Origin: Candidatus Omnitrophota bacterium
Lineage (GTDB): Bacteria > Omnitrophota > Omnitrophia > Omnitrophales > Aquincolibacteriaceae
Reading direction: 5' to 3'
DNA length: 64,000 bases
Assembly: GCA_020632475.1 (NCBI GenBank)
Contig: JACKFM010000001.1
Span: 272,125 to 336,124 of the forward strand
In this document: one piece after another, positions 13,226 to 61,735 of the stretch
Layout of the letters: each line of letters begins with the position of its first letter
Position numbering within the stretch: position 1 is the stretch's first letter
Made by a program: the position numbers and the translations under genes
Notes under the pieces: model-generated
Told to the model about the DNA's origin: nothing
Databases searched by the model: none
The model's input: the letters and a program-made list of their open reading frames with translations, nothing else

Positions 13226-16200
13226 ATGCTTATGCAAAAAACAAAAAAACAATATCTGAAAATCATCGCGGTGTTAACAGCCGTTGTCTTTACATTGACA
13301 TCGCTTGAACTGCAGCCTTTGGCTCGAGCGATGCAGGTGGCTCCGGCGGCTGTTTCAGGTGAGATCTCCCCTCATTCTGTGTTTGAATTAAACCTTCCAC
13401 CGGAACTTGGCGTGATTCAAAACCTCATCAGCGGAGACCGTGGGGCCATTGTCCATTTACAGGCAGCGCATGGCAATTATGACGCACAGAAAAAAATTGA
13501 AAATATCCTGCACTATCTCAAAGATCAATACGGGATGAATCTTTTATTGGTTGAAGGAAGTGCGTTTAAACTTCGGCCTGAGAGAATTCGCTTTTTCCCC
13601 AAACAGATGAATTTGAATAGGGAGATTCTTGAGGGGTTAGCGCACAAGGCCCTGGTGAAGGGCGCCGAGCTTTTTCTGGCGGAGGATAAAGGAGCCGAAG
13701 CCTACGGGATTGAAAATCTTGAGACCTATAAAGCCGATGCCGAGGCCTTCCGGTCTGTTATGGAACACCGTGAACAAATCGAGAATTTCCTGAAACGTCT
13801 GCATCAGGACATTGAGGCACTTAAAGCGCAAACGCTCAACCCGGTTTTGAAAAATTTTTTACGTGAGGCCGAACGCTATTTTCAAAATACGACACTGCTT
13901 GGCGACCGGATTCATTGGCTGGCCGCTCAATCTAAAGATCAGCTGGAAATAGACTTTTCAAATGTGATTTACCAGATGGATTGGCCGATGCTTGTGCGTT
14001 ACTTCGCTTTAAAGACAGTTGAGGGAAAACTGGACTCAACTGCGTTTGAAAAAGAACGCGATGCGTTCCTGGCAGTATTGGTCGGGGACAGGGCCGAAGC
14101 CCTGCCTGCCGGACAGGCGGGCCTGTCCCCGTTGGTCACAAAACGAGTCACGACTCTGCTTACTGAACCTATATCCGAAAACCAACTGCCTGACCCCGAA
14201 ACCGGCCTTCTTTTTGAAAAAATGGCCGAAGCGCTGCCGTTGAATTTTGATTATGACGCTTATCCGAATGTGAAACTTTTTATCGGGCATTTGATTCTGC
14301 AAAGTGAGATCAAAGCCGCTCCTTTATATGCTGAAATCGACCGTCTTGAAAATCAAATTTTAGAGAAACTGATCCGTACCCCCGCTGAGCGTGAAGTTGT
14401 TGAGAAGATCAAACAGGCCAGACTGCTTGAAAAGCTTTTGCATCTTGAATTAATGCCTGAGGAATGGAAAAAACTGCAGACCGCAGACTTGGCGACGGGG
14501 AGAAAAGAGACGGGGCGACAGGGTGAAGGGGTGACGGGGAGTGAGTCTGTCATTCCAGCGGAAGCCGCGCCATCCGGCGGACAAGCAGGAATCCATAGTA
14601 CAACCGAGCCTTCGGCCTTCGACCTTCTGCCTTCCCTCTCTGCTGAGCGGCCGTCCGTTCAGTCCTCCCGCCACACAGAAGGCGGGCAGGCAGCCCTCAG
14701 CCCTCAGTCCTTTGATATCCCCGAAGACATGCAGACGATTTATCAAAACGCGTTGGAGTTTTACCGCCTGGCCGAAAAACGTGATGAAGCGATGCTTGAA
14801 AACATTGAGGCTAAGCTGGCTGAGACCGGAAAGAATAAAGCCGTCGTGATCACCGGAGGTTTTCACTCGCAGGCTTTTTTTGAGCATTTTCGTGAAAATG
14901 GATACAGCTACGCTTTGGTCTCACCCGAGATAAAAGAACTCAGCGGCCGTGAAGCGTATGTCGAGAGTATGCTGAAAAATTCGTCGGCCCACAGGCGACA
15001 AACCGCAGACGACGGACTTGCGACAGAGATTGCTTCGCCTACGGCTCGCAATGACGGTAGTCTAAGTATCATTCCTGCGCAAGCAGGAATCCACAGTACA
15101 ACCGAGACCTCTCGGCCCTCAGCCCTCAGCCCTCAGTCCTCTTTAGAGTCACTTTTCCTCGCCCTCTCGCGTCAGGAAATTGAACAATCCGGCGGCAACA
15201 CACGCTGGCTTTTTCAGCAGGTGCGTAATGAAATTAGAAATGTGCTTAAACGTCACGATTTGAAGGCTCTTGATCTGAAATCTGAGTTGAGGACGGATGC
15301 AACGGATGAATCCGCATCTGCAGCTGCTGCAGATACAGAGATGTTTGCGCCTGAAATTACATGGATCCGTCAAGCTTCAGGTGAACAGGGCGATCAGCCT
15401 TATCTGATTCGTCTAAGGCTTGAACAAAGCAAAGCTCTTTCGGGGGGTACCGGTTTTCAGAACCGTTACCTTGTTGAGGTGGCGGCGCTTGACCAAATGA
15501 TGGATATTGATACGGTTCAAAATAACCCTCGCCTTTATGCCGGAAGTATTTCCTTGACTTTTGACTGGCAGGGAAAGCTGATTAAGAACGAGCAGTTTAA
15601 TTTAATTTTTTTGATCGGAATCGACCTTATTTTTAACGAGATTTTGAAAAAAGATATTCAGCCTTTCATTTTGCAGAAACTCGAAAGCCTGACCGGAAAA
15701 GCTTTTAATGAGACCAATGCCGAACTGATTGATGGTGCGGCATCGTTTGATGATGTTTTGAGACATGACCGGCGCTTGTCGCCTGAGCGTGACTATAACG
15801 CATTAACCCCGGGACAATTCAGGAATACTTTTTATGCCGGTTATGAGAGCGGCCGTATTCAGCATGAGTCCATGTATGAGCAATGGAAAGCTACGGGTGG
15901 AACTGAAGGGGAAGATAAATTTCATATCGGTGGAATGATCATCCTGAGAAAAATAAATGGTAAATGGTCTTTTCTGCTCGGTCGCCGAAATAAAACCGGC
16001 AAACCTTTCTACCGTGACTATACCATTCCTGTCGGCAAGAAAGAATCCCGGATTGGCCTGGGCCTGGAATTTGACCGGTTTTTTAACCAGCGCAAGCTTG
16101 AAAAATTGAAAACGATAGGTCTTACGCTGCATGACGGTGAGATCATGGATCCCGTCGAGTTTATTGCTGAGGCCGCGTTGCGTGAAACGATTGAAGAAAC

Positions 16201-42573: not shown

Positions 42574-42599
42574 AGGGACAGGTCTTTAGACCTGTCCCT
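42574..42599 (+). terminator. perfect hairpin agggacaggtc-ttta-gacctgtccct after the epimerase gene (intergenic member of repeat family C)
   Basis: 11-bp perfect stem with a 4-nt loop, 9 nt after the stop. A second hairpin atccgcc-acaaagaa-ggcggat follows at 42621-42645 and matches the core of intragenic family A. Confidence 0.45.
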
Positions 42600-43879: not shown

Positions 43880-43880
43880 C

Positions 43881-48500: not shown

Positions 48501-51500
48501 ATGTAATTAAAAAATGGCAGATGGATGAGGCGGAGGCCTTTCGTGAAATCAGAGAAATTCGCGGCATTCTTGAAACACTGGATTTTCTAGTGGATCTTCT
48601 CGTGAGCGGAGCACAGGGACGCGTCCGTCCTGAAGAAATGCCTCTGGATGTGATTGGGCAGCAACGGCTCGGCCTTTTGCGCAAATATGCTTTAAATGAT
48701 GCGCGCAACCGTAAAGCCTATTCGCAAAATGTATTTCATGCGAAGGCGGCTGAGATGGCTAATCCTGTCATTGTCGGTTTAGATGTGATCGGAATGGGGC
48801 CCATGAATTATGAGGCCTTTGACGGCGAATTGCAGCAGATCGACAAGCAATTGAAATCCGGAAATCCCGTGACCGATGCAGAGGTTCAGGCGATTCAAAG
48901 ACAGGCGGCCGACTCGGTGACGCTCAGGCGTGACCATATCCTGGATGAAATCCGTGATCAATTACAGGAAACCTACCGTGAAGTTAATCTGACACCACCG
49001 GGTGAGTTGATTGCACGCATTGGCGGAGATGAAGTGGTCTTTGTGGGAGATAGTTCGGTTTTGCACGGGGCTGTGCTGGACCGGTTTCTAACCGGATTGC
49101 GTGAGAGGATTCGCTCGAATCTGGGTATTCATGTGCGCATTGCGGCTGATTCTTTGATCCAGGACTACCGCCGGCGTTTCACTCGGACAACGCGTTCGGA
49201 TCCGAAGATGATGGCCCATGCCCGGGCGCTCAGTCTTCAGGACACGAATGTCAATCATGTCCTCAAGCCGATGGAGAAGAAAGGCTTAACCGGAGAGTTG
49301 CATGGCCACGGCGGGGCGATCGTTGTGCGTGCCAAACGCTGGGGCTTGAACCGCTGGAACCGCGTCGTGGAAACCGATCAGGGTACGACCCGTATCGATG
49401 CCGAAGCGGAAATTATTTTAAGCAACTGGCATTTTAACCCGGGATTACTCACCACCAGGCGTACGGAACTGAGATCTTCTGCCAATGATTCTGAGGTCTA
49501 TCCGCAGCCGGTTGAATTTTTCACTCATCCATGGACACTTCAAGAAAGATGGCCGTTTGCGCCCAGTGCCTTACTGCGTTTTCCGGGCCAGTTGACCGCG
49601 CTAAAACGCAGCGTATTTCCGGCGCTTTTAAAAAGACAGGGCGATTCGAAAAAACTGAAAATGTCTTTTCTGGCGACCAACACCGGAGAGGAAATCGCCG
49701 GATATCTTTATGCCTTGTCATTAGCCTATGACGCGCATACCGAATGGGGACAGGCTGGAAAACTCGATCTTTCGATCGTCGCCAATGATTTGCACGCGGA
49801 TATTCTTGAAGAAGCCCAAAGGCGTCTTTCCGGAAAATCTCCTTTTGTTTTCAATGGCGATTTTATCGGCGGTGATCAGGAAGCGGAAATGACCATTTAT
49901 GAGCCGCTGCTCCGGCCGCTGCCGTCGTCGTTTGAACCCTTTCTTCGGGCAATTAATCCGATTAAATCTCGGATTCAAAAGTCTTTTTCTTTTATTTCCG
50001 GCAGTATGTTCCGCAGTTTTCGTCTGTTTAAGGCGATCGTCGGTTCGGACATTATTGTTTTAAATGCAGCGCCGATCCCTTCCTGGAAACCTCTCCTGTG
50101 GCTGTTCGGAAAAATATTAACACGCGGCGAAAGACCTCCCGTAATCATTACCACCAATCGGCAATTAGCCGAGGGTCTTTCCGGATATCAGGTGCTTGGA
50201 TTACGCGATCTGGGGTGGGCTGGTTCTTATCTTGCGATTCCTAAATGGCTGCAAGAGGATTTTGATATCGAGCCGTTAACTTCGATGATTTTGAATCGTG
50301 CAGAGTTGCGGGCTGCGAGCGATCAGACATTAAGGCAGCAGTTGTTAGGTGAACTGCATTCAGAACCGGATGCCCAAAACCCTGTTCTGCAGACCTTGTT
50401 TATGTTTGATGCTTTGAAGAGAGTGGTTCAGGGGGAACCTTCAGCGCGAAATCCTGTGTTTCAATTGAGATCCGATGATATTTTAAAAGCCATTTTGGGA
50501 AACCGTAAAGCCATTGAGGTTTTTGAAAATCCGGTAACTCAGGAGAATTTAAAACGTCTGGAAGGTTTGCCTTATCTTTATCGCCTGGCCGTCAACGGAA
50601 TTGCCACCGAGCCCGAGCATTACGGGCGCCTTTTTATCCGGGCAGGGGAATCCCGTCTGGCGCCTGAGGAATCCTTTCGTCAGGCACTTGAAATGGGCTT
50701 GAAAACTGTCAGCAGTGGGACGCCTCAGGAGATCCGGGATGAAAAACTGAAGAAGGTTAAAAGATTTCTGGATTATCACTTTTTGAAAGTTTTTCTGCGT
50801 TATTGGAACCGTGAATATGCCCCGTCGCTGCCGACCATGCTTGAAGGGGTTATCCCGGACACCGTGAAAAGAAATCAAATGCTGATGGCCAATATTACCC
50901 ATTTAAGCGGTGCGGTTTTGCAGGCTGTCTATGACGTTAATCATGAATATTTAAGTGCCCAGTACGGTGAGCCCGATTCAACCGGCAGTATTGTTCTGGC
51001 CGGTGCCAATGCCCGCGGCGAATATCCTACTTTTGATTATGATGCCGTAGTTCTTTATGAAAAAGACGGCCGCACTCCCGGAGGCCCCAGCGGGACTCTC
51101 TCCCATGCTGAATTTTATAACCGGCTTGCGGTATTAATCCGCCAAAGTTTTGAAGGCGATCCTCAATCGGGGTATGCGGGGATGGGCCGTGAAATGGACA
51201 GCCGGTATCAATATACAATTTTTAAATCATTTCTGAACGCTTGGGGTGTTGAAGAAAACCGGCCGATGTGGGCAGTGAGCATTAACCGTGCCGAGGCAGC
51301 GCTTAAAAGTTCTCAGCCGGTTGGTTTGATCCTTAGCTTTCTGGATCTTATGCCCGGTGCCGGTGACATGGACCTAGCCGAACGTTTTATCCAAAGCACG
51401 CAGGAATATCTCGCGGATGAAAAACATCTGTATACGGGCATGGCACAGACGCTGAGTGCCTATCAGTTTATGCGGCAAAAGACGGCAGAGACATCCCCGG

Positions 51501-54500
51501 TGCTGGATATCAAAGGCACTGCAGGCGGGCTGCGATCATTCCATTATTTTTTATGGTTTTTGCGCCTTTACCGCCGTTTGCTCTTTATGCGTGCCGGGCA
51601 ACCCAGGGCAGCTCAAAAACCCGCTTCCGGTTTGAATTTTCTGGATAATCTGACCGTGTTAGAACGGGAATTTTCCGGGACCTCTGTGCGTAATGAGTTG
51701 ACCGCTTATTATCTTTATTTGATCAATTTACGACTGACCATGGATCTTTTTTATGCGCGCAATAGCAAACAGCTTCCGACGGATTCTTTGGCCCTGGCTT
51801 ATTTTGCCTTTTACAATGCAACCCTTTATCGTCTGGCCGAAGGCGCCTCTCCTCTCGGTTTTGATCCTGCGCAAGCGCTGCCTCTTCAAGAAGAGTTTTT
51901 GAGGCAGTTGAAGCAGGTGATGACACGGATTGATGGTTTAATCGACGGTTTGATGAATGACCTTCTGTCCGGAAATTTTGATCAGGTCAATATGCATTTG
52001 TCCCAATGGCAGTCCTCACCGGAGTTAATTGATGCAGCGGATCTTCGGCAAACTGCTGCAAGTCTGGTGGAGACAAGCCGGGAGGAACTGGATCAGGCCG
52101 CTCAGAAGCATGTGGAGCAACTGGTTGAAGATCGCACAGGGCTATCTCCTCAAAAAATGATTATTTTTGTAACTGCTTTTTTGATGAGGACGCGGAACAT
52201 GACACAAGTTGCGGCGGAAAGAAGCGCTCTCTGGTATTCTGAGAACAGGCCTCGGGAGTTTGAACGAATGGCCCATAAAGAGGAAAAACATCGTAAAGCA
52301 GAATTGAGGAATGATACCGAGACTCTGGCTGGGGTGCGCGGTGAGATCGAACGTTGGGATGTCAATTACATCGTAAAGAAAAAACATTTTGGTCTGCAGC
52401 TTGGAAGGCGTTTGAATATGGCTTCGGGGCCCGGCAGCGTGCTTGAATTTGATTTTCTGAAACGCATGATGCGTTTAATGCTTCCGGAAGCGGAAGGCAT
52501 TTCTGCCGCCACACCTCCGGGCGGTACAATGCCGGATTATGTCAGGTCTCAAGAAGAGTTTGAACAAATGCTTGACGTTTTGGAACAGACGGGGATCTTA
52601 AAAGAGCCTGTCATCCCTCGCGGCGAATTTGAAACCGAATCGCAGCGGTTGATGCGTGCCAATAAAACATTAGCCGAAAATTTTGATTTTTTCAGCCGGA
52701 ATCACCTGCACGATATGACGCTGACCGATGACCGCAACCCGTTAGTCCGGGATTACAAAACACGTATACCGGAACATTATTTGCAATCCGAAAGAGCTTT
52801 TCAAACCGTGATTCCGCTGGTGCTGCTGATGTATGAAAGACGCTTTCCCGGAGAGGTTGAGACACAAACGCTCAAAGATCTGGATGATCATTTTGTTTTA
52901 CAAAAAAAGAAAACACTTCACTTTGACTGGGAACGCGGATTTTTCGAAGGGGAAAGTGAAGTGGTTGCCCTGAAGCCTTCAGAAGGTGCTGCTGTTCAGT
53001 TCTTTGCCGTTCACCCCGAATTAACTTTTAAAGCCTTTGAGTATGGAGTGCCGGATGTCAATATTCTTGAGGGCCTCAGGCTTAACCGGGATGCTTTTGA
53101 AAAGTGGATCCATTTACAGCGCGCCTCTCCGTCCGGTGTGGGCAGTGCAGGCTTTCAAGTGCTTGTGCAATCTTTTGTGCACCTCTTAGGAAAAGCTTCG
53201 GGTGATCAGCATGCCTTTTCGAAAACAATCTGGTATTTACACCGGTTTGGGCTATTAAATGCGTATATTCGTGAATATGAACCCGGAAAAATCGGCAATC
53301 TGATCGCTGATCCCGCTGTGCATGAGTTTACCACCGATCAGCACAGCCTTTATCATTTTGAAGTTCTGGATAAAATCGGTCCTGATGATCCGGCCGCGTT
53401 TAGTCTGATCCGTGATTTTTATTTAAAAATTGAGAATTCCCCTGAAGACTCCCATGAGCGAAAACTGCTGGCGGCATTGCGATTAAGCGTTTTTTTACAC
53501 GACTCCGCCAAGAGTTTCTTTTTTGCCGGTTCGGCCGATCATGCCATTCAGGCTGCACAAAATGCGGTTCCCCGTTATCTCAAAGAAATGGGCTTTGACG
53601 ATGAGACAATTGAAACCACCGCCTGGGTTGTTCGCAATCACATGGTTTTAAACAGCTATGCCTACAGGCGGCTTGTTGATCATCCCGAAGAAATCAGTGA
53701 TGCGGTGGAACGCATGGTCTGGGATCCCGGGATTACTCCCGAACGTTTGAGGCTGCTTTATCTCATATCCCTTTCGGATTATTTCTCGCTGCAGCCTCTC
53801 AAGGATTATCCTTCTTTAAATCCGCATTTTGAGTTGGGGTTACGGGTTCTTCCGGATGCCGAGTCTGAAGGGAAGTGGACTTCGCTGGAACGTATGCATC
53901 AGCTTTACCAGGCACTTGCCTCGATTGTAGGCGAGACGGATCCGGTTTCAAGAGAAGATAATATGGCTCGTATCCGCGCGTTAAGAACAAACGAAATGCA
54001 GAGTTTCTGGAACCGCTTTTTTGCCGAAACCGCTTCCCAGGTTCTAGAGCACCTGACCGAGGATGCTCTTTATGAGCGGTATTTAGCCGCGGCCCGGAAA
54101 GGGACGGGCGAAGTCCGGGAAAATGAAATCCGGAGGAATGCCGCCTATACTGTGGAGCATCTTTATCAGGACTATTTTTCTGAAATTTTGGATGATGGGG
54201 CCCGCACCCCCGAAATCCAGGCAGAGGTGCAACGAAGGGCTTCTTCAGAATTTGCACAGCTTTTTTATCGGGGCTACATTCAGTCTTTTGATGAAGGCTA
54301 TTTGAAAAATCTGACGCTTCAAGAACATCTTCGGAGGTATCTTTTCACCGTTCATTTGGATGTCCTGCGCAAGCGCGGTTATAAAAAACCCATCATTCTA
54401 TTTAATCCCGGTTTTGATAATGTTTCAGAACGTCAGCATGAGTTCATTATCGGGTTGACGACCGATGAACGAGGCGTTTTTGAAGATGTCACCGGGGTGC

Positions 54501-57500
54501 TGGCCTTGCATGAAGTAGATGTGCAGGGAGCCCGTTTTGTGCGCACCGGATCAGGGCTTATTGTTGACCGCATTTTTGGGTTCCGCCGTAACGGTGATGC
54601 CGAGATCGATACCCTGCGCCAGCGCATCTGGACAGATCTGGGCCGTATTTTTACGGATTACAACCGGCAGGACCATGCGGTTGAAATCTTTTACCGTGAA
54701 AAGGAAAAACCCTATCAATCCGTCCGTCCGCCGACACGGTTAAAACAGGATACTCACATACAGTGGTTTCATGACCGCAATACCGACGGTGAGGAGACCT
54801 CTGTTTTTACGGTTAAAACCACAGACCGGCCTGCGCTCCTTCATGTCATCGGCCGTATTTTGAATACCCGGGGTTATAGTGTGATTAAAGCACCGATCAC
54901 CACCTATGAGCCGTTTACCGACAATACGTTTTATATCAATAAAGACGGGACTTTTTTAAGTGATGCCGAAAAAGAAGCGCTTGAAAAACTGTTGGTTTCT
55001 ATCCTTGATCAACCCATCATCAACATTGCGGATATTAAAGGGGACAGGTCTTCAGCCCTGTCCCCTGACCAGGTACCTCCCAGCGCAGCTAATGACGCCG
55101 CGTCTGGACATTCCGAGTTACGAATTACCATGCATTCCGATGAGGCGGAGGTTGCGGCATGGATGGATGAGCTTGCAGCGGAGATTACAGATGCCGGTGA
55201 TCGTAAAGCCGCCGAGGCGTTTATTACTGTTTTTAGACAAAATCCCGAACTTGACCGTAGCGAAATATCCTATGAAGGCTGGCATCAGTTCGTTGGTGTT
55301 TCACGCGATGATGCCGGTACAAGCTATGCCCATATTCTTCTGGATGCCGCTGTTCATTTTCCGCGCAAATTAATCCGTGCCGCACTGGTGCATGAGGGAA
55401 CGCACATTTTGAATAAGGATCTGCAGGATGCGCAGCTTGCAGCCTTTTTAGCGGCACAACAAGAATGGGCTGCAATGACGGCCCGGGGCGGAGCTCAAAC
55501 GCAAGACGATGTGGACGTTCTTTTGGAACCGCTTGCAGACTCCATGGCGCTAACGATGGAAGACGAGTGGCGGGCCTATCAGGCCGGTGACCGTGTATTC
55601 TTGTCATCTCTTGACGGGTCGGTCGATGATTTTATTCAGGCACTGCCTCAGCCGGATGCACACGCCCCAAGAGTTGATCAGGCGAGGTATCTGATGATTC
55701 GTGGGTTGGTAGAAGATATTCGGGTGCGGTCAACGCAGCTCGAGACTTATGAACTTAAGACTAAAGCCACTGCTTTGCAGGGAATTCTTTCGATTGATAA
55801 CCTTTTAGCCTTAAACCAGGGATCGCGGGCAGAGCTGATCAATCTTTTTCTGATCATTGTGGCAACTAACGGCGAAGGCGCGAGGTATGTGACCTGGGAT
55901 CAAAGTCGTGAATATCTTCATCAGACGACCATTACTGATATTCAGGGTCTGACCCGATGGCTGCTTTCTCAGCCGCGTGCTCAGCAGATCGGTCAACTCA
56001 TCGCCCATTACACCAGGACGGAGTCGAGAGCTTATCTCAGTGATTCTGATTTTGTGACCCATGAAGCCATTGAAGAAAGCGGATATGGTCAGGAGCTGCG
56101 CCGTAAATTCACATCTGCTTTTGACCGGATTATGGCAGCAAGTGTTCCAGCGGCGTCGCAGGATCTGCATACCGGAATTAAGGCGGTACTTTATACCGCC
56201 TATGATAAAGCCCCTCAGATTTTCCTAAGCATTGATCCGAACATGGAAGCCCGGGCAGCACATGTCATTTATCTTTCTTCGGAAAGACAATTGATTCTGA
56301 AATTTCCATCGGTGGAAAAAGCGCGCGAAGCAGATGAGAATTTTCTGATCGGTGCGATCCTCTATGCTGCCGGCGTGCCGAGGACAGGGCATCCGTGGAA
56401 TATATGGACGTTTAATCCGAGGATTCGTGACAATACCTATAATATTCCAGCCGCAGGCGTTACTTACCGTGTGACAAACGATCTTTTGAATTCTCTTCAG
56501 CAGGTGATTGCTCAAAACATCCCGTCGGCTGCAGTGGGAACCTCAGCGTCGCCGGCTCCAAGGAGGAGATGGCAATTTCGCCGTGTAGCACCCAATGAGC
56601 GTGTGGACGTTCCTCCCCGTCAGAGGAGCGGCAGCCCTTTGCCAGCAGCTGTTCCACCGCGAGAATCTCCGGATGAAATTGAGGAAATCCGGTTTGTTAA
56701 TTTTCGGGGCAATGAGAATTGGCAGCAAAACGCTGAGAAAGTCATCCGTGAAGCATTCCGAGCCATTGCAAGAACGCCAACTGAGAGTTTGAGTGATCAG
56801 CGTCTTCAGGGTGTGCTTCAATTCATTCATGAGATGATGGAAATCCGCGGGACATCCAGTCATGTGGTTTTAGCGGTTGAACCGAATCTCACCGGTGTTG
56901 CCGGTGAGGTGGCTTCGCTCGGACGTCTCCCGGCTTTTTTTAGGATCATGCTTGATCGTGACGGTCAAAATAACGGGCAGAAGCGGTTCGCCCGCGGGCC
57001 AAGAGGGAATTTGTTTGATCAGAAGGTTTTTATTATGCATCTTCGAAAATGGCAGGTGCTTGCCTCAGCTGACGGCACTCCTGCAAATGACGTTCAAATT
57101 TATGACGGCATCAATGTCAGACAGAGCATTGCCACTCGCCCAGGAGAACAAATTATTAAGTTCGACCGTGATTTTCTGATCAAGGCCATGGTTCACTCTT
57201 TGCTGGATCAACAGCATTCCTATCCCTGGATCATGGCTGAAAAATATCCCCAGATTCAGTTTAATTCGGATACGAATGCGATTGTCCTTCCCGGAACAAG
57301 GCGGGTTTTTGTCCCGACACCGAGTGAAATCGTTCAAATCGTTGAACACATCATTCAATTTGCTAATCTTCACCCCGAATTGCGCGTGAGCAACGCAGAA
57401 GAGCTGATTGCCTATGCTCGTGATCATAGGGCCGCACCTGCCGAAAATGTGACGGATTTAGCGAATAAAATTGTGCGACTTGGTCTTGGATTTAGCGCGA

Positions 57501-60500
57501 CGACAAGAGATGATCAGACAATATCGGTCACACGTTATGCCCCGTCGTATCTAAGTTTCGAATTAACCGTGGCTGAGTTTAATGCAGGCATTGCTGTGGA
57601 CGACACGATTCCGGTAGCTCTTAATGCGCAGAGCTTTGCGCCTGTGGTTATTCCTCTTATGCAGCACATTGCCGGGCAGATGGATGCTGGACAAATTCCG
57701 GATTTTACGCAGTTTTTTGCCCTGGAACAACGTTTCTCGGATGCTCGCGGATGGCAAGAGGTTGCTCAAAAAATAAAAGACATTGTGACAACTGGAAAGG
57801 TTGAACGTATCACATCCCCAAAGAACAATGAAATCTTTATTGAAATGCTGCGCGTGCTAAATCACGATTGGTTGATCGATCACAATATGGTTATGGTTAG
57901 AGTAACAGGTGCACCTGCTGACAGAAACGGACAAGATGCTGTAAGCGCGGCTGAAACTTTAAGAGTTGCTGAGGTGATCGATAAACGGGTTAGAAAACTG
58001 GCGGGGCGGAATGTGCCTGTGTTAGTGGTTAACCGCGTTTTTGCACAAAATGAGATGCAACCCCTTGGCTATAATACGTCACTTGATTTGCAGGGGATGG
58101 TGATTCTTAATCAACCTCGTTTGAACACCGTGGCGTTAGCGCCTGGGACCTGGAGGAGTTCGATTGCTCCCCAAATGATTTCACATCCATATGGCCAAGC
58201 GCTAAGAAAAATTTATACTGGACATCGCAAGAGGTATGCCGAACGAGCTCCGTACTTTTTACTTTTTCAAAGAGAAAGAGCTTTAGAAGAGTACCGTCAC
58301 GCAATTGATCATTTTCGTATTGAAGATTCTATGGATCGACGCTTTTTTACCATTAGAACGGATTATCTTGATGAGTTTGAAAAAATAGCGATTCAACCGG
58401 AAGGGATTTTAAAGGGCATTCTGTCAGATCAATCATTGATTTCCAAAGCCGGGAAACCCAAATATCATTTTCAAAATGCCTTTTTTGAATTACAAGGGCA
58501 GATTGCACGCGGTGATCATGCTGAGGACCCTACCTTTTTATTGGCTTCATGGCTGCAGCGGTTGGCTTCACCTGTAACGGCTTCCTCTCATCATTATGAT
58601 GCAGCGTATTATGGTCTGTACTTAGCTATTTATTATGATTTCATCACACAAAGCGGTTCCGAATCGCTAAATCAAAGACCTCTCCTTGGTGAATTTCTGA
58701 CTTGGCAGCAAACCCTCATGCCGCAGCTGAGCCAGCAATTGACGCAATTCGTTAATGATCCTGAACGTTTCAGACAAGCTTTAAAAACGATTCACAAATA
58801 CGAATTCACCGGATCGCTTGAAGACCTCGGGGAAGACGTTCGAGTGCCGGAGCCTAATGCTTCGGAACCTTCCAGCGCAGCTAATGATGCTGCGTCTGGT
58901 CGAGCACCGGACGCCGATGCGTCGGTACTTCCAAGCGCAGCTAATGATGCTGCGTCTGGTCGAGCCGAACAGCGGTTTCAGGAAATGATGACGGATTTTG
59001 TTGCGCTTGTGCGTGAGAAGGATTTGATTCGTTCTGAACCGGAGGAAGGGAAGTATCAATTTGAAGAGCGAGGCGCAGGCGGTTTTCGTCTCTGGTCGGT
59101 CAGAGAGAATGGGGATTGGGCTGGAAGCGAGACATCAAACCAAGTGACAGAACTCATTTTTGATCAGCTGGAAAATGTGTTAACACTTAAAGTAACAGGT
59201 GGTGTGGATGGAGACATTGCCTATGAGTTTCGTCCTGACGGCGCGCGTTTCTATGCAGATCACAACAAAACCGGAGAATTTATAGCCCTGGACGCTAAAA
59301 ATCCGATTGTGAATTTTGGAGTTGATGAGCTAAATCGTATTTATTTGATTTATTCTGATGGCTTGATGAACGAATTTTTTGCTAAAGAAGGGCAGAGCCC
59401 TCTGGGAATTTATCCAAGCATCCTTGGAGGCGGGTTTTCTCTTCAAGATGTCAATACAGCGACGAGGTTTACGAGTCCGGATAGCCTTGTGAAGGTTAGT
59501 TTTCTTCATGAACCTTCTCAGGATAGAGACTGGGGGGATGAGATTTTTGTGATTGCAGATGTCAGTTTTGATGAAGAAACTTTCCCGAACGCTGAAAGCC
59601 GTAGCGAGTATCAGCAGCTTTTTAAAGCACATGATTTTCTCTCTGCGACCATTAAAAACCTTGAGCTGGATATTCTTGGGGCACCGATCTCGCAAATCCA
59701 CATCCGAAAAATTAATGATGAACTCAATTATCAAATAAGCCGCGTGACATTGACCAATATGACCGGTAAACAGGCCTCTTTTATTCTGAAACGGGGTTTT
59801 TCAAGTACGTTGAAAGATGAACAGGGGCTTGATGCTTATCAGAAAAAAAAGGATGGGTTGGTGGATCCTGATTTTAGAGGGTTTCCCCTTATAGGTGATT
59901 CGCGGCAGATTTCAGGTGGAGCCTATCACTTTTGGTCTGTTGAAGATTGGGGGGACCAACAGCCGGACAATGAGAGAGGTTTTGACTACTTTTTCCGTCT
60001 TTTTCGTGAGGGGTGGGAACCGCACATCGAGCAGTCTTTTGAATTGGATCGATTAAGAGTCGTTGAAAAAGATGGCCACCGGCATATTGTCCTTTCAGAC
60101 TATAATTATTTTAGGCAAGAGCGGCAGAAAACGCGGCTTTTTGCGACACGGTTGATTCAGGGTTTAATTCTAAATAATCACCAAGCAGGCGCTGATGTTT
60201 TATTGACATTAGGCGCTGTAGCCAGCCGCTATTTAAAAAAGGAACTGATTCAGGAGGTCTTCGATTCATATCGTACAGGCGAGTCACCGGTTCCGCCGGA
60301 ACATTTGCCTGCAATAGGGGATTTGAATGAGGTGATGCAGGATGCTCCAACGGCTGATTTGCTTGATGCTTCGGCAGCGGCTCCTGAAACCCCGCTGCCT
60401 GTACTTCCGCATCCGGTTGCGGTGATCAAGAGTGCTCTTGAAGAGCTGGAACGTGAATTTCCGCGTATCCAGGAATTAAGACAGGAATTTGTACGCCTTA

Positions 60501-61735
60501 AAACATTTTTTGAAGACGTGGAGCCGGGGCAGGATGATTTTTCAGTTCTTCAGGTTTTCAGACTTGCCGCTCTGGCAGACAGGTGGGATGCTTTCTGGGA
60601 TAATCATATTCGTTATCAAATTGGGCGTCCTCAAGATTTTGGTGCAGACAGCGGTAATTTTGTCAGGCATGAACTGATGACCGGAACCAGACACGAATGG
60701 GGTTTTGGAGTTCGGAATCTGGTTGCACGTCTAACAGAACAGTCTATACGTGATCCGCTCAATAATCTGGTTTCTAATCAATTGAAAAGGCTCTCGACTG
60801 ATTTGTTGTCGCATGTTCAGGAAGTTCAGACGGTTGGAGAAGCCTATGGACTTTTTCTAGCGCGTGAATCTTTAGGCAAGGTTCCCGAAGTCAGGTTTCA
60901 AGATGCAGACGGCGTATCAGTCAATTTTTTTAGCGGGATAGGATATCTTAAAGCAAAAAAACGATTCGATCTGCCTGTTGGTAGTGTGGCCTATGATGAA
61001 GCTCAGAACCTGATTACGTTTACTCTTCCCAAATCGGAATTGCGTATAGCACCGCCCGCCGATGCGTCGGTACCTCCCAGCGCAGCTAATGACGTTGCGT
61101 CTGCGTACTCTCGTGTAACTGCGCCCGAGTCACGAGCGACGAGCGACGAGTTCCGCCGCATAGAAGTCAACTACGAACTCTTCGACACAGATGCCGAAGG
61201 AACGATCACCATGCCGGTTGCGGCTTTTGCCGAAATTGCGCAGCAGACTGTTTCAGCTGATGAGGATTTGAAAGCGGAGGCGTTAGCAAAAATGGATGCC
61301 CTGGCTGTGGCAGCCAACCGCTGGCACAATGTTCAGTTAATTTTATATGCCGAAGGCTCGGAGTATGACGCCCAAACCAATTATTATCTGGAACAATTCC
61401 GTCCGCTGGGGAATGTGACCATTACACCGCAAAAACTTGAAGAAGCTTTATCGGTTCCGCGCGGCAAGGAACATCATACGCCTGTCGACATTTCACCCGA
61501 AGGGCGCATTCAGGATCATGACTATGTCGGCGGAGAACTGGTTAAAAAACTGAAATTTGTGAAGCTGCGCAAAAATCCGGGAGATATTCTTTTCGGGCTT
61601 TTGGCTTCAATTACCGGCGGTGATCTTCCGGGTGTCGTCACAGGTGAGGACGGCAACCTGGATGACCTGACCGGTTATGCCACCAGTCAGGCCCAGGCTT
61701 ATCTTGCCCGGCAGGTTGTGGCCTGGTCAGCATAA
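45530..61735 (+). CDS. giant multidomain protein 2 (5,401 aa) with signal peptide, conserved N-terminal domain, TM hairpin, GGDEF-like palm, GlnD-like NTase-HD-ACT-ACT module and HExxH motif
   Basis: Uninterrupted 16.2-kb ORF. Domains, in order:
- N-terminal MKHPFFNFKRFIAITVALCMVLTDRSAVSYAQA.
- First roughly 450 aa homologous to giant ORF 1 (shared ...GGFH... block).
- TM helices at about 47335-47500.
- RIGGDEVVFVGD palm-like motif at about 49020-49060.
- NTase motif AGANARGEYPTFDYD (G-x-R-G-E...D-x-D) at about 50985-51060.
- HD motif VFLHDSAKS...H at about 53470-53700.
- Two ACT-like segments at 54440-54910.
- HEGTH at 55391-55405. Confidence 0.9.
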   Translation: MKHPFFNFKRFIAITVALCMVLTDRSAVSYAQAASAQFASEAQAVNTKLASAQFVLPGFNLPSELGFIEEVYSAPREKEQPSPSALSPQPSVLPSKTVIYIQDAHDSLEAQEHIAEMIRLFVHDNGIKTVLEEGYDGKVPTDEYFGSIKDPEIKEEVSYFLMDKLRIGGAEYTHINRQEDFKLIGADSIELHRENVKAYQKNSVYLKQVQKDLKEMFERIERMANVHFSKELKQWMKNKKRYDAGQLDLLSYLKRTAGLLGDSALPYPNILVLLSAEETKNARAIEKAKEIHSAQLFEEIGEFENSVAEKFLTHDRDRDIFKYYKALSLMLRLSDIEVTPEEYEAAKGTLKNFDTRRMAEFIVADTKHTAVLSTEWEDKIKNAIRFYEIAHQRDDSIEKHLEDFLASDQQTAVLVFGGFHRDKIQAIMRAKGISFVTLQPAISSVSQTHQEYYKQLMSSGYLDFEKTLHLDSEQGFSGSNIPLPQASRMSRTLLVWDVPGYGRVVEGLAETARVLKNRKPDMDRPLLLRQMARGLQARSSAFEQETVPGHAELRNQEASPQNEPPESSVRLRMDEPQGFAAPRIRGHLQAYERRLRAQALRRKLAELGLLFTAVALAVTAVIWSVVDAETEIRATDVIWMTIGAFAASVWVLYRFLSERDFRISSEQERINFERILNGTKDGESVIRSVEMLEAYAQSPDRSQRSDIIRSAERVKDEILERNPLLTIVDQEKITEGDKIVIFEIPGTGHEGLGIKEMNALFGELLTDNFLAEVKKSLYAMVRASASVRGISITPLYSTHKEHAFVVRGDVSQDFLRNEIQKKLVEAMNRILLTSDDLPYRRIIEEKKLDQNGEDLFEIHFGMSRVEEDSEEGRLTANIRAKQALLISRYRNVWDNNRDPDLVLYSHENYAAVVDELASIRRRLLANEGAALFATGENEAFGQYFFLRPGAANILRKKVEWGELSTEEKKVFHHVEIYQLAQRYFELLNLQDVIKKWQMDEAEAFREIREIRGILETLDFLVDLLVSGAQGRVRPEEMPLDVIGQQRLGLLRKYALNDARNRKAYSQNVFHAKAAEMANPVIVGLDVIGMGPMNYEAFDGELQQIDKQLKSGNPVTDAEVQAIQRQAADSVTLRRDHILDEIRDQLQETYREVNLTPPGELIARIGGDEVVFVGDSSVLHGAVLDRFLTGLRERIRSNLGIHVRIAADSLIQDYRRRFTRTTRSDPKMMAHARALSLQDTNVNHVLKPMEKKGLTGELHGHGGAIVVRAKRWGLNRWNRVVETDQGTTRIDAEAEIILSNWHFNPGLLTTRRTELRSSANDSEVYPQPVEFFTHPWTLQERWPFAPSALLRFPGQLTALKRSVFPALLKRQGDSKKLKMSFLATNTGEEIAGYLYALSLAYDAHTEWGQAGKLDLSIVANDLHADILEEAQRRLSGKSPFVFNGDFIGGDQEAEMTIYEPLLRPLPSSFEPFLRAINPIKSRIQKSFSFISGSMFRSFRLFKAIVGSDIIVLNAAPIPSWKPLLWLFGKILTRGERPPVIITTNRQLAEGLSGYQVLGLRDLGWAGSYLAIPKWLQEDFDIEPLTSMILNRAELRAASDQTLRQQLLGELHSEPDAQNPVLQTLFMFDALKRVVQGEPSARNPVFQLRSDDILKAILGNRKAIEVFENPVTQENLKRLEGLPYLYRLAVNGIATEPEHYGRLFIRAGESRLAPEESFRQALEMGLKTVSSGTPQEIRDEKLKKVKRFLDYHFLKVFLRYWNREYAPSLPTMLEGVIPDTVKRNQMLMANITHLSGAVLQAVYDVNHEYLSAQYGEPDSTGSIVLAGANARGEYPTFDYDAVVLYEKDGRTPGGPSGTLSHAEFYNRLAVLIRQSFEGDPQSGYAGMGREMDSRYQYTIFKSFLNAWGVEENRPMWAVSINRAEAALKSSQPVGLILSFLDLMPGAGDMDLAERFIQSTQEYLADEKHLYTGMAQTLSAYQFMRQKTAETSPVLDIKGTAGGLRSFHYFLWFLRLYRRLLFMRAGQPRAAQKPASGLNFLDNLTVLEREFSGTSVRNELTAYYLYLINLRLTMDLFYARNSKQLPTDSLALAYFAFYNATLYRLAEGASPLGFDPAQALPLQEEFLRQLKQVMTRIDGLIDGLMNDLLSGNFDQVNMHLSQWQSSPELIDAADLRQTAASLVETSREELDQAAQKHVEQLVEDRTGLSPQKMIIFVTAFLMRTRNMTQVAAERSALWYSENRPREFERMAHKEEKHRKAELRNDTETLAGVRGEIERWDVNYIVKKKHFGLQLGRRLNMASGPGSVLEFDFLKRMMRLMLPEAEGISAATPPGGTMPDYVRSQEEFEQMLDVLEQTGILKEPVIPRGEFETESQRLMRANKTLAENFDFFSRNHLHDMTLTDDRNPLVRDYKTRIPEHYLQSERAFQTVIPLVLLMYERRFPGEVETQTLKDLDDHFVLQKKKTLHFDWERGFFEGESEVVALKPSEGAAVQFFAVHPELTFKAFEYGVPDVNILEGLRLNRDAFEKWIHLQRASPSGVGSAGFQVLVQSFVHLLGKASGDQHAFSKTIWYLHRFGLLNAYIREYEPGKIGNLIADPAVHEFTTDQHSLYHFEVLDKIGPDDPAAFSLIRDFYLKIENSPEDSHERKLLAALRLSVFLHDSAKSFFFAGSADHAIQAAQNAVPRYLKEMGFDDETIETTAWVVRNHMVLNSYAYRRLVDHPEEISDAVERMVWDPGITPERLRLLYLISLSDYFSLQPLKDYPSLNPHFELGLRVLPDAESEGKWTSLERMHQLYQALASIVGETDPVSREDNMARIRALRTNEMQSFWNRFFAETASQVLEHLTEDALYERYLAAARKGTGEVRENEIRRNAAYTVEHLYQDYFSEILDDGARTPEIQAEVQRRASSEFAQLFYRGYIQSFDEGYLKNLTLQEHLRRYLFTVHLDVLRKRGYKKPIILFNPGFDNVSERQHEFIIGLTTDERGVFEDVTGVLALHEVDVQGARFVRTGSGLIVDRIFGFRRNGDAEIDTLRQRIWTDLGRIFTDYNRQDHAVEIFYREKEKPYQSVRPPTRLKQDTHIQWFHDRNTDGEETSVFTVKTTDRPALLHVIGRILNTRGYSVIKAPITTYEPFTDNTFYINKDGTFLSDAEKEALEKLLVSILDQPIINIADIKGDRSSALSPDQVPPSAANDAASGHSELRITMHSDEAEVAAWMDELAAEITDAGDRKAAEAFITVFRQNPELDRSEISYEGWHQFVGVSRDDAGTSYAHILLDAAVHFPRKLIRAALVHEGTHILNKDLQDAQLAAFLAAQQEWAAMTARGGAQTQDDVDVLLEPLADSMALTMEDEWRAYQAGDRVFLSSLDGSVDDFIQALPQPDAHAPRVDQARYLMIRGLVEDIRVRSTQLETYELKTKATALQGILSIDNLLALNQGSRAELINLFLIIVATNGEGARYVTWDQSREYLHQTTITDIQGLTRWLLSQPRAQQIGQLIAHYTRTESRAYLSDSDFVTHEAIEESGYGQELRRKFTSAFDRIMAASVPAASQDLHTGIKAVLYTAYDKAPQIFLSIDPNMEARAAHVIYLSSERQLILKFPSVEKAREADENFLIGAILYAAGVPRTGHPWNIWTFNPRIRDNTYNIPAAGVTYRVTNDLLNSLQQVIAQNIPSAAVGTSASPAPRRRWQFRRVAPNERVDVPPRQRSGSPLPAAVPPRESPDEIEEIRFVNFRGNENWQQNAEKVIREAFRAIARTPTESLSDQRLQGVLQFIHEMMEIRGTSSHVVLAVEPNLTGVAGEVASLGRLPAFFRIMLDRDGQNNGQKRFARGPRGNLFDQKVFIMHLRKWQVLASADGTPANDVQIYDGINVRQSIATRPGEQIIKFDRDFLIKAMVHSLLDQQHSYPWIMAEKYPQIQFNSDTNAIVLPGTRRVFVPTPSEIVQIVEHIIQFANLHPELRVSNAEELIAYARDHRAAPAENVTDLANKIVRLGLGFSATTRDDQTISVTRYAPSYLSFELTVAEFNAGIAVDDTIPVALNAQSFAPVVIPLMQHIAGQMDAGQIPDFTQFFALEQRFSDARGWQEVAQKIKDIVTTGKVERITSPKNNEIFIEMLRVLNHDWLIDHNMVMVRVTGAPADRNGQDAVSAAETLRVAEVIDKRVRKLAGRNVPVLVVNRVFAQNEMQPLGYNTSLDLQGMVILNQPRLNTVALAPGTWRSSIAPQMISHPYGQALRKIYTGHRKRYAERAPYFLLFQRERALEEYRHAIDHFRIEDSMDRRFFTIRTDYLDEFEKIAIQPEGILKGILSDQSLISKAGKPKYHFQNAFFELQGQIARGDHAEDPTFLLASWLQRLASPVTASSHHYDAAYYGLYLAIYYDFITQSGSESLNQRPLLGEFLTWQQTLMPQLSQQLTQFVNDPERFRQALKTIHKYEFTGSLEDLGEDVRVPEPNASEPSSAANDAASGRAPDADASVLPSAANDAASGRAEQRFQEMMTDFVALVREKDLIRSEPEEGKYQFEERGAGGFRLWSVRENGDWAGSETSNQVTELIFDQLENVLTLKVTGGVDGDIAYEFRPDGARFYADHNKTGEFIALDAKNPIVNFGVDELNRIYLIYSDGLMNEFFAKEGQSPLGIYPSILGGGFSLQDVNTATRFTSPDSLVKVSFLHEPSQDRDWGDEIFVIADVSFDEETFPNAESRSEYQQLFKAHDFLSATIKNLELDILGAPISQIHIRKINDELNYQISRVTLTNMTGKQASFILKRGFSSTLKDEQGLDAYQKKKDGLVDPDFRGFPLIGDSRQISGGAYHFWSVEDWGDQQPDNERGFDYFFRLFREGWEPHIEQSFELDRLRVVEKDGHRHIVLSDYNYFRQERQKTRLFATRLIQGLILNNHQAGADVLLTLGAVASRYLKKELIQEVFDSYRTGESPVPPEHLPAIGDLNEVMQDAPTADLLDASAAAPETPLPVLPHPVAVIKSALEELEREFPRIQELRQEFVRLKTFFEDVEPGQDDFSVLQVFRLAALADRWDAFWDNHIRYQIGRPQDFGADSGNFVRHELMTGTRHEWGFGVRNLVARLTEQSIRDPLNNLVSNQLKRLSTDLLSHVQEVQTVGEAYGLFLARESLGKVPEVRFQDADGVSVNFFSGIGYLKAKKRFDLPVGSVAYDEAQNLITFTLPKSELRIAPPADASVPPSAANDVASAYSRVTAPESRATSDEFRRIEVNYELFDTDAEGTITMPVAAFAEIAQQTVSADEDLKAEALAKMDALAVAANRWHNVQLILYAEGSEYDAQTNYYLEQFRPLGNVTITPQKLEEALSVPRGKEHHTPVDISPEGRIQDHDYVGGELVKKLKFVKLRKNPGDILFGLLASITGGDLPGVVTGEDGNLDDLTGYATSQAQAYLARQVVAWSA
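45763..45808 (+). repeat. family B repeat copy near the 5' end of giant ORF 2
   Basis: agagcaaccgtctccctcggccctcagtcctcagccctcagtcctg encodes EQPSPSALSPQPSVL. Confidence 0.65.
55038..55107 (+). repeat. composite: family C hairpin followed by a family E palindrome in giant ORF 2
   Basis: 55038-55066 is aggggacaggtcttcagccctgtcccc. 55075-55107 is cctcccagcgcagctaatgacgccgcgtctgga, which has the inverted arms cgcagc / gcgtct and ccag / ctgg. Together they encode KGDRSSALSPDQVPPSAANDAASG. Confidence 0.7.
58872..58963 (+). repeat. two tandem family E palindromic units in giant ORF 2
   Basis: tccagcgcagctaatgatgctgcgtctggtcgagc appears twice (58872-58906 and 58929-58963), separated by accggacgccgatgcgtcggtacttc. 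Encodes PSSAANDAASGRAPDADASVLPSAANDAASGRA. Confidence 0.7.
61058..61106 (+). repeat. family E palindromic unit in giant ORF 2
   Basis: gccgatgcgtcggtacctcccagcgcagctaatgacgttgcgtctgcg encodes ADASVPPSAANDVASA. It shares the gccgatgcgtcggtac leader with the 58914 copy. Confidence 0.65.

Follow-up and report, generated by a model that had tools for sequence, protein, structure and literature searches.

Do two very large open reading frames (ORFs) lying on the same strand of one Omnitrophota contig encode single giant chains, or precursors that are cut into smaller proteins? The question is raised by a 64,000-nt stretch of contig JACKFM010000001.1 (assembly GCA_020632475.1, positions 272,125 to 336,124), referred to below as the window, which carries the two ORFs, designated G1 and G2. 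Giant proteins are already known from Omnitrophota (West-Roberts et al., 2023, bioRxiv 10.1101/2023.11.21.568195; Nielsen and Lui, 2026, bioRxiv 10.64898/2026.06.07.730766), and West-Roberts et al. (2023) asked whether they are one chain or cleaved, the analysis being blocked by unknown cleavage points. We propose that G1 and G2 belong to an Omnitrophota family of Sec-targeted, Cys-depleted, large-to-giant modular proteins that share a common grammar and are plausibly cut precursors; taken as a whole, this reading is in our estimate evenly poised between right and wrong. Its descriptive part, comprising the ORFs, the fold and residues of the N-terminal head, the head-first architecture, the motif, the tail and the Cys depletion, is held with high confidence. 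Cleavage at the junction motif is put forward tentatively, as a possible but somewhat doubtful step. The grammar would run from a signal peptide through a head of ~450 aa and a hypervariable, mostly orphan body to a tail domain and/or an [S/A]A-COOH end, and the modules of the body (NUDIX, a GlnD-type nucleotidyltransferase-associated domain, TPR and transmembrane (TM) hairpins) would be delimited by the motif [RK]SE[LMAVI]R.

13226..39994, + strand: giant ORF G1, 8,922 aa, uninterrupted, with 4 Cys and no internal repeats.
45530..61735, + strand: giant ORF G2, 5,401 aa, uninterrupted, with a single Cys (C19) within the signal peptide.

Translation of the ORFs in the window gave zero internal stops in G1 and G2. 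The two uninterrupted + strand ORFs reported in an earlier note on this DNA, the original prediction, were thus reproduced with exact coordinates and lengths, and the peptide strings that it quoted were found in the two proteins. Internal repeats were absent from G2 as well as from G1. Both proteins start with a Sec-type signal peptide followed by a head domain.

13226..13330, + strand: G1 Sec-type signal peptide (aa 1–35, ending ...PLARA and followed by MQ), read from the sequence and a hydropathy scan.
45530..45628, + strand: G2 Sec-type signal peptide (aa 1–33, ending ...SYAQA and followed by AS), read from the sequence.
13379..15277, + strand: G1 head, a divergent TIKI/Ere/ChaN-like domain (aa ~52–684; H82, E110 (+28), R519 and H547; from family alignments).
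45692..47176, + strand: G2 head, a TIKI/Ere/ChaN-like domain (aa ~55–549; D103-x-H105, E133 (+28), R393 and H420).

The signal-peptide-like starts noticed earlier were borne out, since both N-termini combine an n-region rich in K/R with a hydrophobic core and a site of AxA type, as judged by sequence reading and hydropathy. The homologous N-terminal domain claimed for the two proteins also proved significant in a formal blastp alignment: residues 361–573 of G1 matched residues 290–446 of G2 (24% identity, E = 9.5e-9), and residues 55–218 matched residues 59–242 (21% identity, E = 3.5e-7). In the comparison of protein against protein, the likeness was restricted to this domain. Thus, the description of the locus as two paralogous giants is true for the head only, which makes up about 7–10% of each protein, and does not extend to the unrelated bodies. 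As judged from the sequences, the homology of G1 and G2 spans just the first ~500–650 aa, and the bodies are unrelated, non-repetitive and nearly all unannotated.

The conserved length of the head is ~450 aa, and the G1 head is 23% identical to the G2 head in the family alignment. The core of the G2 head is split by a helical insert of ~220 aa, and the G1 head is broken by in-frame repeat-derived inserts at aa 410–504 and 584–639. An alignment-based AlphaFold2 (AF2) model of the head was confident (pLDDT 84.8, pTM 0.79); the top five Foldseek matches of the model all belonged to the Ere family, with moderate scores (probability 0.60–0.91). In the predicted structure, a parallel beta-sheet flanked by helices is present, which is the core common to Bcr135, ChaN, HopBA1, PMT and RRSP, that is, to the TIKI superfamily (PMC6254334). 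The catalytic 2His/2Glu site is represented by H85/E113 in Bcr135 and by E3900/H3902/E3930/H4030 in RRSP, where R4001 is also essential (PMC6254334). The His–Glu spacing was 28 in G2 (H105–E133), G1 (H82–E110), Bcr135 (H85/E113) and RRSP (H3902/E3930), and the Arg–His spacing was 27 in G2 (R393–H420), 28 in G1 (R519–H547) and 29 in RRSP (R4001–H4030). The active sites were equated by the order and spacing of these residues, and not through structural alignment at the residue level. H, E, R and H were invariant across the 85-sequence family alignment, and both G1 and G2 keep every invariant residue. This invariance at canonical spacing argues for catalysis by the head, which is predicted to be a candidate hydrolase or protease.

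With respect to Pfam, the best family member matched PF04187 (ChaN) with E = 8.5e-5, and G1 was below the gathering score for both PF04187 (13.5 bits vs 27.7) and PF01963 (TraB_PrgY_gumN; 10.6 vs 26.8), with matches at aa 501–549. Since the scores of the head lie under the gathering thresholds, the head, as modeled, is a new family in the TIKI/erythromycin-esterase/ChaN hydrolase superfamily and not a member of PF04187 or PF01963. The earlier statement that the N-terminal module matches no family is therefore superseded by a predicted TIKI/Ere/ChaN fold with a catalytic His–Glu pair. From the known TIKI/Ere/ChaN/TraB-PrgY-GumN superfamily (Bcr135, EreC, RRSP of MARTX, Tiki1/2) the head differs in giving no significant profile match, in the ~220-aa insert and in the residue that replaces the first Glu of the 2His/2Glu site. 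At this position, two before the first His (E3900 of RRSP), Asp is found in G2 and most relatives (QDAH) and Ala in G1 (QAAH). A further difference is that the head always stands directly after the signal peptide, leading a giant protein.

A search with aa 1–500 of G2 recovered 36 proteins (25–54% identity, E down to 1e-109), every named one of which was a protein of a Candidatus Omnitrophica/Omnitrophota metagenome-assembled genome (MAG). Among the GTDB species representatives (one genome per species), 174 loci encode the head, and the locus-level counts given here cover the 80 that were retrieved. The named genomes among them all belong to Omnitrophota except for one labeled “Planctomycetales,” in agreement with the type of lineage that had been suggested from the sequence. 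Several MAGs contain multiple paralogues, for example six loci in JAUYMS01. The head was located at the very start of the ORF in 80/80 loci, and the heads of these relatives were 43–53% identical to that of G2. The ORF ran off the locus or contig in 58 of the 80 cases, in 28 of which at least 3,333 aa were still open, and it was complete in the other 22 (528–3,768 aa, one alone being short). Only 13% of 179,833 body residues resembled any other body, and G1 and G2 had only three patches in common with these relatives. In addition, the head occurs as a stand-alone gene of 431 aa. Most members have an N-terminal hydrophobic segment, which is the only TM segment in several complete members of multiple thousands of residues.

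The architecture, in which the head is constant and the body hypervariable, and the presence of several paralogues per genome would also be expected if the head served, without catalysis of its own, as a tag for trafficking or anchoring. It would then be comparable to the TPS domain in two-partner-secretion (TPS) proteins or to the N-terminal domains of polymorphic toxins. Such a tag would address varied bodies to one export or attachment route, and another enzyme would process them. Some members of the TIKI superfamily are indeed non-enzymatic, ChaN being a haem-binding lipoprotein according to its PDB title and Pfam description, and the C-terminal end of the proteins is conserved too, as sorting signals would be. 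However, the canonical spacing of the H, E, R and H residues and their invariance throughout the 85 sequences point to catalysis, head genes exist alone, and no conserved transporter partner adjoins these genes. We therefore regard the tag explanation as improbable. The neighborhoods of the family genes contained no conserved partner gene at all; only generic ABC ATPases, lipid A acyltransferases and sugar-nucleotide enzymes adjoin them.

The second element of the grammar is a short motif that marks the boundaries between modules.

15278..15292, + strand: G1 head/body boundary motif KSELR (aa 685).
16568-16582, 25244-25258 (RAELR), 25268-25282, 31430-31444, 31577-31591, 34304-34318 (HAELR) and 37253-37267, + strand: further G1 motif sites.
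47177..47191, + strand: G2 head-boundary motif variant HAELR (aa 550).
50297-50311 (RAELR), 52295-52309 (KAELR), 55109-55123 (HSELR) and 61031-61045 (KSELR, at the tail start), + strand: further G2 motif sites.

The motif [RK]SE[LMAVI]R was spotted post hoc, and its enrichment far exceeds any multiple-testing concern, with 332 occurrences in 223,063 family residues against 3.8 ± 1.9 in shuffles (~87-fold). Its density was 1.49 per 1,000 aa in the family ORFs vs 0.11 per 1,000 aa in flanking ORFs of <1,000 aa, where most of the matches fell in Cys-free fragments of neighboring giant genes. The first motif was found 60–200 aa past the GG.H of the head in 53/69 ORFs (median 115). In most complete ORFs a motif lay ~185–215 aa from the C-terminus, at the start of the tail, the alignment of which opens with a near-invariant RSE[VLAM]R. 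The motif never occurred inside a Pfam domain and tightly bracketed radical SAM, HAD and NUDIX domains, as in 522 / radical SAM 562–712 / 847, in 1730 / HAD 1757–2003 / 2081 and, in G1, 685 / NUDIX 974–1054 / 1115. Six strict sites are present in G1 (aa 685, 1115, 4015, 6069, 6118 and 8010). The only strict site of G2 is KSELR at aa 5168, and loose [KRH][SA]ELR sites are found at aa 550, where the head boundary is expected, and at aa 1590, 2256 and 3194. Together, this gives seven strict sites in the 14,323 aa of G1 and G2, with about 0.24 expected at the shuffle rate.

The form of the motif was genome-specific: RSELR accounted for 29/29 sites across the six JAUYMS01 paralogues and for 16/16 in CAYSSX01, RSEAR accounted for 16/21 in CAYGIT01, and KSELR is typical of this window, which holds 5/8 of all KSELR sites in the set. 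The constancy of the variants holds across paralogues with unrelated bodies. These genome-specific variants argue for a cis- or trans-acting reader that co-evolves with the sites. One explanation at the RNA level and one at the DNA level were rejected. An in-frame Shine-Dalgarno sequence with a start codon (AGGAG...ATG/GTG/TTG) does not agree with the codon usage, given that CGN codons encode the first Arg at 92% of sites and TCN codons the Ser at 94%, so that AGGAG is avoided; a DNA repeat was ruled out by the variation of codons among sites of one ORF. The use of several synonymous codons at all motif positions indicates that selection acts on the peptide. A full-text literature search for the motif strings returned nothing relevant. 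The sole strict motif in the 13 ordinary genes of the window (ERSELRR, aa 127) was observed in the GGDEF-EAL gene at 10947-12575, directly upstream of G1, and probably occurs there by chance.

The C-terminal part of the proteins forms the third element.

39956..39991, + strand: G1 C-terminal end, ...TFLAANEVSSAA-COOH, with the class-typical [SA]A ending (...SSAA).
61031..61732, + strand: G2 family tail domain, ending ...ARQVVAWSA-COOH (blastp to the relatives L029, 5e-9, and L053, 6e-6; HMM E = 9.1e-11).

Comparison of the C-termini revealed a tail domain of ~200 aa that is conserved in the family. The tail hidden Markov model (HMM), which was built without G1 or G2, detected the G2 tail and did not detect the C-terminus of G1. 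The tail alignment had no match in Pfam, and its profile gave only spurious coiled-coil or weak matches in the PDB; the single-sequence AF2 model of the G2 tail reached a pLDDT of 33. Independently of the tail domain, [S/A]A-COOH ends 25/28 ORFs of at least 1,500 aa, including G1 and G2, vs 11/402 ordinary ORFs. The family can thus be defined by a signal peptide with a QDAH...EEG...RD...GGFH head, [RK]SE[LMAVI]R junctions, low Cys, the [SA]A-COOH end and the ~200-aa tail. G2 shows every feature of this head-junction-tail family, and G1 is placed in it by a divergent head, six strict motifs, low Cys and the SSAA end, with a negative result for the tail HMM.

Large Cys-poor ORFs were also observed directly upstream of the head genes in five loci (L019, 843-7808; L025, 462-5408; L045, 320-9667; L083, 11-9676; L079, 3088-6862). 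They end in ...VSA, ...SAA, ...QSA or ...IAA, often with the junction motif, from which it appears that tandem arrangement is frequent among the giant genes of this class. In locus L015 (9776-18370), the head ORF stops at 528 aa and is followed by separate motif-rich, Cys-free ORFs of 508 and 1,589 aa; this stretch holds runs of N and represents either a naturally split architecture or a scaffold gap.

The fourth element is the composition of the proteins. G1 has four Cys and G2 one, that is, 5 in 14,323 aa, vs 1.35% in the 13 neighboring genes. Family-wide, Cys made up 0.158% of 209,564 residues vs 0.859% in flanking ORFs, so that the depletion is 5- to 38-fold, which fits exported proteins. 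The only four Cys of G1 form two local pairs, CEGC (aa 2942–2945; 22049-22060) and CTSAESC (aa 4930–4936; 28013-28033), and Cys seems to be retained only where metal binding or redox chemistry is possible.

Few parts of the bodies could be assigned.

16145..16387, + strand: G1 NUDIX hydrolase domain (aa ~974–1054; PF00293, E = 4.3e-8, above the gathering score), bracketed by the motifs at aa 685 and 1115.
36653..38149, + strand: G1 weak TPR region (aa ~7810–7860 and ~8274–8308; Pfam E ~5e-4 to 7e-3, below gathering scores; PDB CTPR E = 0.002).
51491..51946, + strand: G2 GlnD_UR_UTase-type domain (aa ~1988–2139; PF08335, E = 5.8e-6, 26.8 bits vs gathering score 21).
31604..34528, + strand: four TM hairpins of G1 (aa 6127–6166, 6535–6585, 6855–6895 and 7063–7101; hydropathy scan and sequence).
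47342..47497, + strand: TM hairpin of G2 (aa 605–656; hydropathy scan and sequence).

Tiled Pfam searches of G1 and G2 returned nothing beyond NUDIX, a few TPRs and GlnD_UR_UTase. Thus, of the enzymatic and signaling modules announced by the original prediction, these are thinly verifiable and no signaling domain was found in Pfam; the membrane segments that it mentioned are present as the four hairpins of G1 and the one of G2. NCBIfam gave nothing useful on the G1 tiles, and phmmer comparison of whole G1 and G2 with the PDB revealed essentially no relatives. Residues 6100–7299 of G1 had zero matches among 1.84 billion representative proteins (exhaustive HMMER, E ≤ 0.001), and two further homologue searches with body segments were empty, their sensitivity being limited by a word prefilter. 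The bodies of complete relatives contain enzymes of cytoplasmic type (GT5/GT1, SNF2/DEAD, radical SAM and HAD), as well as CMP kinase, methyltransferase and HEAT repeats.

These body domains bear directly on the question of one chain or many. Under the proposed mechanism, exported precursors would be cut at the junction motifs into separate modules in a polyprotein-like manner; the head would be the first candidate for the protease, whether in cis or in trans, and the genome-specific variants of the motif would reflect co-evolution with whatever reads it. This agrees with the proposal that other Omnitrophota giants are processed by N-terminal C39 or S8 peptidases (West-Roberts et al., 2023, bioRxiv 10.1101/2023.11.21.568195). 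Alternatively, G1 and G2 may be uncleaved, membrane-tethered cytoplasmic mega-enzymes, in which one chain is fastened to the inner face of the cytoplasmic membrane by its N-terminal hydrophobic segment and TM hairpins, the enzyme modules act in the cytoplasm, and the motif serves as a structural linker, helix cap or docking site and not as a cut site. The enzymes of the bodies are of cytoplasmic type (NUDIX and GlnD here; radical SAM, HAD, GT5/GT1, SNF2 and CMP kinase in relatives), and all five hairpins have R/K-rich N-flanks and short neutral loops, which places the flanks in the cytoplasm by the positive-inside rule. Moreover, some members carry the motif within the last helix of the tail, and TM-anchored architectures are the dominant class of Omnitrophota giants (Nielsen and Lui, 2026, bioRxiv 10.64898/2026.06.07.730766). 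On the other hand, both proteins begin with a classical cleavable Sec signal peptide (positive n-region, AxA site), the N-terminal TM segment is the only one in many complete relatives, and a 5- to 38-fold depletion of Cys is hard to explain in cytoplasmic enzymes. The 87-fold enrichment of the motif and its genome-specific variants also exceed what helix capping explains. The single-chain explanation is accordingly judged unlikely, while deserving serious consideration.

Several observations weigh against the cut-precursor reading. The enzymes identified in the bodies depend on cofactors of the cytoplasm (NUDIX and GlnD here; radical SAM, GT5, SNF2, CMP kinase and HAD in relatives), and all TM hairpins are flanked by R/K-rich stretches; together, these favor a cytoplasmic body despite the signal peptide. 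Three findings favor the opposite conclusion, export: the signal peptides are classical, several members have no TM segment besides the signal peptide, and Cys is depleted. The strict motif density of 0.67 per 1,000 aa in G1 and 0.19 in G2 is below the family mean, most of the G2 sites are loose AELR variants defined after the fact, six relatives of >1,000 aa contain no strict motif, and the motif might instead serve for docking, capping or modification. As for the head, G1 has no acidic residue two positions before the first His (QAAH), the ChaN and TraB Pfam scores of the head family are all under the gathering thresholds, and the head profiles did not reach superfamily members in the PDB, giving only spurious coiled-coil or weak matches. 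Finally, the assignment of the contig to Omnitrophota was made via the labels of family members and not by a phylogeny of the contig.

The cut-precursor reading has a stronger form, in which G1 and G2 would be true bacterial polyproteins, exported by Sec and self-cut by the TIKI-fold head, with the release of genome-specific orphan enzymes and membrane-inserting modules. In that case, the specificity of the head would co-evolve within each genome, the released modules might be delivered into a host or prey cell, and a second signal, for sorting or quality control, might be provided by the [S/A]A-COOH end with the tail. Delivery of modules into a host cell would, speculatively, reconcile the cytoplasm-type enzymes with the signal peptide. 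We rate this strong form as rather unlikely.

MARTX toxins and viral or bacterial polyproteins are very large precursors from which unrelated enzyme modules are released by a built-in protease at short linker motifs, and MARTX toxins carry the TIKI-fold effector RRSP. G1 and G2 resemble them in being very large, Cys-poor and composed of unrelated enzyme modules, with export and cleavage that would be similar. Unlike MARTX, they have no RTX repeats, cysteine protease domain or type I secretion system signal (Pfam/NCBIfam and repeat check), the candidate protease is N-terminal and of TIKI fold, and a Sec signal peptide takes the place of type I secretion. The original prediction had viewed the proteins as surface adhesins or contact-dependent (CDI/RTX-like) effectors. 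Signal peptides, great size, low Cys and a host-associated phylum, for which an episymbiotic or predatory lifestyle has been proposed, agree with that view, as do the prey-attachment roles proposed in the literature for other Omnitrophota giants. However, internal repeats are completely absent, no adhesin, RTX, TPS, Rhs, dockerin, TSP3 or Ig-like domains were found in Pfam/NCBIfam, there are no sequence relatives in the PDB, and the identifiable body domains are metabolic or nucleotide enzymes, which makes an adhesin or contact-dependent effector very improbable. CdiA/FHA proteins are comparable in having a conserved domain after the signal peptide, a variable remainder and several paralogues per genome. 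They differ from G1 and G2, which have no TPS domain, FHA or Rhs repeats and no adjacent immunity or transporter gene, and in which the variability extends over thousands of residues and is not confined to a C-terminal tip.

Comparison of G1 and G2 with the published Omnitrophota giants demonstrated a number of common traits, namely the same phylum, very long and mostly unannotated ORFs, a signal peptide and/or TM helices, scattered cytoplasm-type enzymes (NUDIX, methyltransferase, GT5, radical SAM, HAD), a peptidase-like domain by the N-terminal signal peptide, proposed processing and largely unique bodies. Unlike those giants, G1 and G2 fall short of the published size cut-offs (10 kAA and 30 kAA) and contain no SecA-DEAD, C39, S8, dockerin or TSP3 domains and no repeats. 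Against the “Archaeovorin” and “Dockerin-type” groups of West-Roberts et al. (2023), whose main set exceeds 30,000 aa, they show no dockerin, TSP3, discoidin, SecA-DEAD or C39/S8, but they do have TM hairpins, numerous TM regions being one of the criteria. With the “multi-enzyme” class of Nielsen and Lui (2026), which combines a signal peptide with TM segments, they share both of these and the lack of repeat dominance; they are smaller than the members of this class (at least 10,000 aa, with many enzyme domains) and have one or two enzyme domains, and their relatives carry such domains. A term search of these two papers found no TIKI-like head, ChaN or cysteine depletion. The motif, the tail and the [SA]A end were found described nowhere, Nielsen and Lui (2026) not having been searched for them. 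A family with a protease-fold head, a boundary motif and a fixed C-terminal ending is previously undescribed. The original prediction, too, mentions neither the junction motif nor the tail domain, the [SA]A ending or the depletion of Cys.

The grammar supplies candidate cleavage points together with a candidate protease, and the question of cleavage thereby becomes testable; if the motif is the cut site, it would supply the cleavage points that West-Roberts et al. (2023) call unknown. The junctions also offer a rational way to split giant proteins into modules for structure prediction, and the elements are simple sequence markers by which genes of this kind can be found and classified where metagenomes are fragmented. 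In addition, the results sharpen the paradox of cytoplasm-type enzymes behind classical signal peptides, a combination that a polyprotein, if true, would explain.

A different feature of the two ORFs is a set of short interspersed repeats.

14453..14737, + strand: in-frame repeat linker inside the G1 head, from repeat families also present at intergenic sites.
14975-15142, 16943-17059, 21791-22024, 22580-22807, 28340-28480, 35153-35464 and 39098-39325, + strand: further G1 repeat linkers.
45755-45814, 55031-55114, 58847-58969 and 61052-61150, + strand: G2 repeat linkers.

Families of short GC-rich DNA elements occur in intergenic regions and in frame in the linkers of G1 and G2, some of them in loops of the G1 head, and none were found in the 13 ordinary genes. 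The copies within the ORFs all use one strand and one frame, although other frames are open. One family is a perfect GC-rich hairpin, GGGGACAGGGCTGAAGCCCTGTCCCC, which with its variants is found at 5409-5434, 14084-14109, 21038-21063, 42575-42598 and 55040-55065. It lies over or just past the stop codons of two ordinary genes and in frame in G1 (twice) and G2 (once), where it always reads GDR(A/S)(E/S)AL(S)P. At nine linker sites of G1 and G2, the heptamer CCTCAGT occurs in runs that read ...(A/V)LSPQS... in translation (14695-14712, 15117-15134, 17000-17017, 22758-22775, 28440-28457, 35324-35341, 39183-39200, 39272-39289 and 45777-45794); the sole copy in reverse orientation is intergenic (43880-43922), and the reverse strand has TGA in every frame. 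Three more in-frame families, translated as QSSRQTEGGQAVLS, TADLxTGR and PSAANDAAS, occur at 14664-14693, 22734-22763 and 28416-28445, at 14485-14503, 21844-21862, 31456-31474, 35191-35209 and 39121-39139, and in G2 at 55079-55106, 58871-58898, 58931-58958 and 61076-61103. All copies keep to one frame with other frames open, and the frames that they use avoid Cys and Trp, which suggests that hydrophilic linkers were selected for or else that the elements spread as in-frame cassettes. The heads of relatives (L004–L083) carry other genome-specific low-complexity inserts at variable loops, such as AYGVRSTANQK, HEPRATEKLV and PRNDVIASEAKQSQ; in-frame repeat insertion therefore seems to be common in these genomes.

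Rickettsia palindromic elements are short, genome-specific interspersed elements that occur in intergenic regions and in frame within genes, where they are tolerated in surface loops and linkers. The elements of G1 and G2 have the same intergenic and in-frame distribution in protein-coding genes, but they are unrelated in sequence, shorter (20–70 nt) and partly heptamer-based, and their in-gene copies are confined to the giant genes, with one orientation and one frame.

The many interspersed repeats of 30–70 nt within the ORFs raise the question of whether G1 and G2 are an artefact, that is, assembly chimeras joined at these repeats, or ORFs not translated as single proteins. The contiguity of G1 and G2 comes from this assembly only; no independent assembly of the two ORFs was found, and the only independent record is a single Logan contig of 3.6 kb that matches neighboring genes. 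Nevertheless, stop-free stretches of 26.8 kb and 16.2 kb at 47% GC are impossible by chance, each ORF begins with its one and only head and stops with the ending typical of the class, base composition and GC skew run smoothly through the window, and dozens of independent MAGs contain long head-first ORFs. An artefact is accordingly considered extremely improbable.

The genes flanking G1 and G2 are ordinary chromosomal ones and encode UvrD, VanY, TrpRS, a photolyase, epimerases, a response-regulator GGDEF-EAL protein, an esterase, an SDR, a C-methyltransferase and a GT1. tRNA and Rfam scans of the window revealed no features, and promoter and terminator scans upstream of G1 and G2 were not better than shuffles. 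An intergenic repeat of ~115 nt (84–95% identical) is located at 3738-3852, downstream of the UvrD region, and at 8944-9057, downstream of the photolyase gene. The 650 nt of intergenic DNA that precede the start of G1 contain an inverted repeat of 27 nt (13029-13055 and 13129-13155, 81% complementary, 73 nt apart), which may have a regulatory role.

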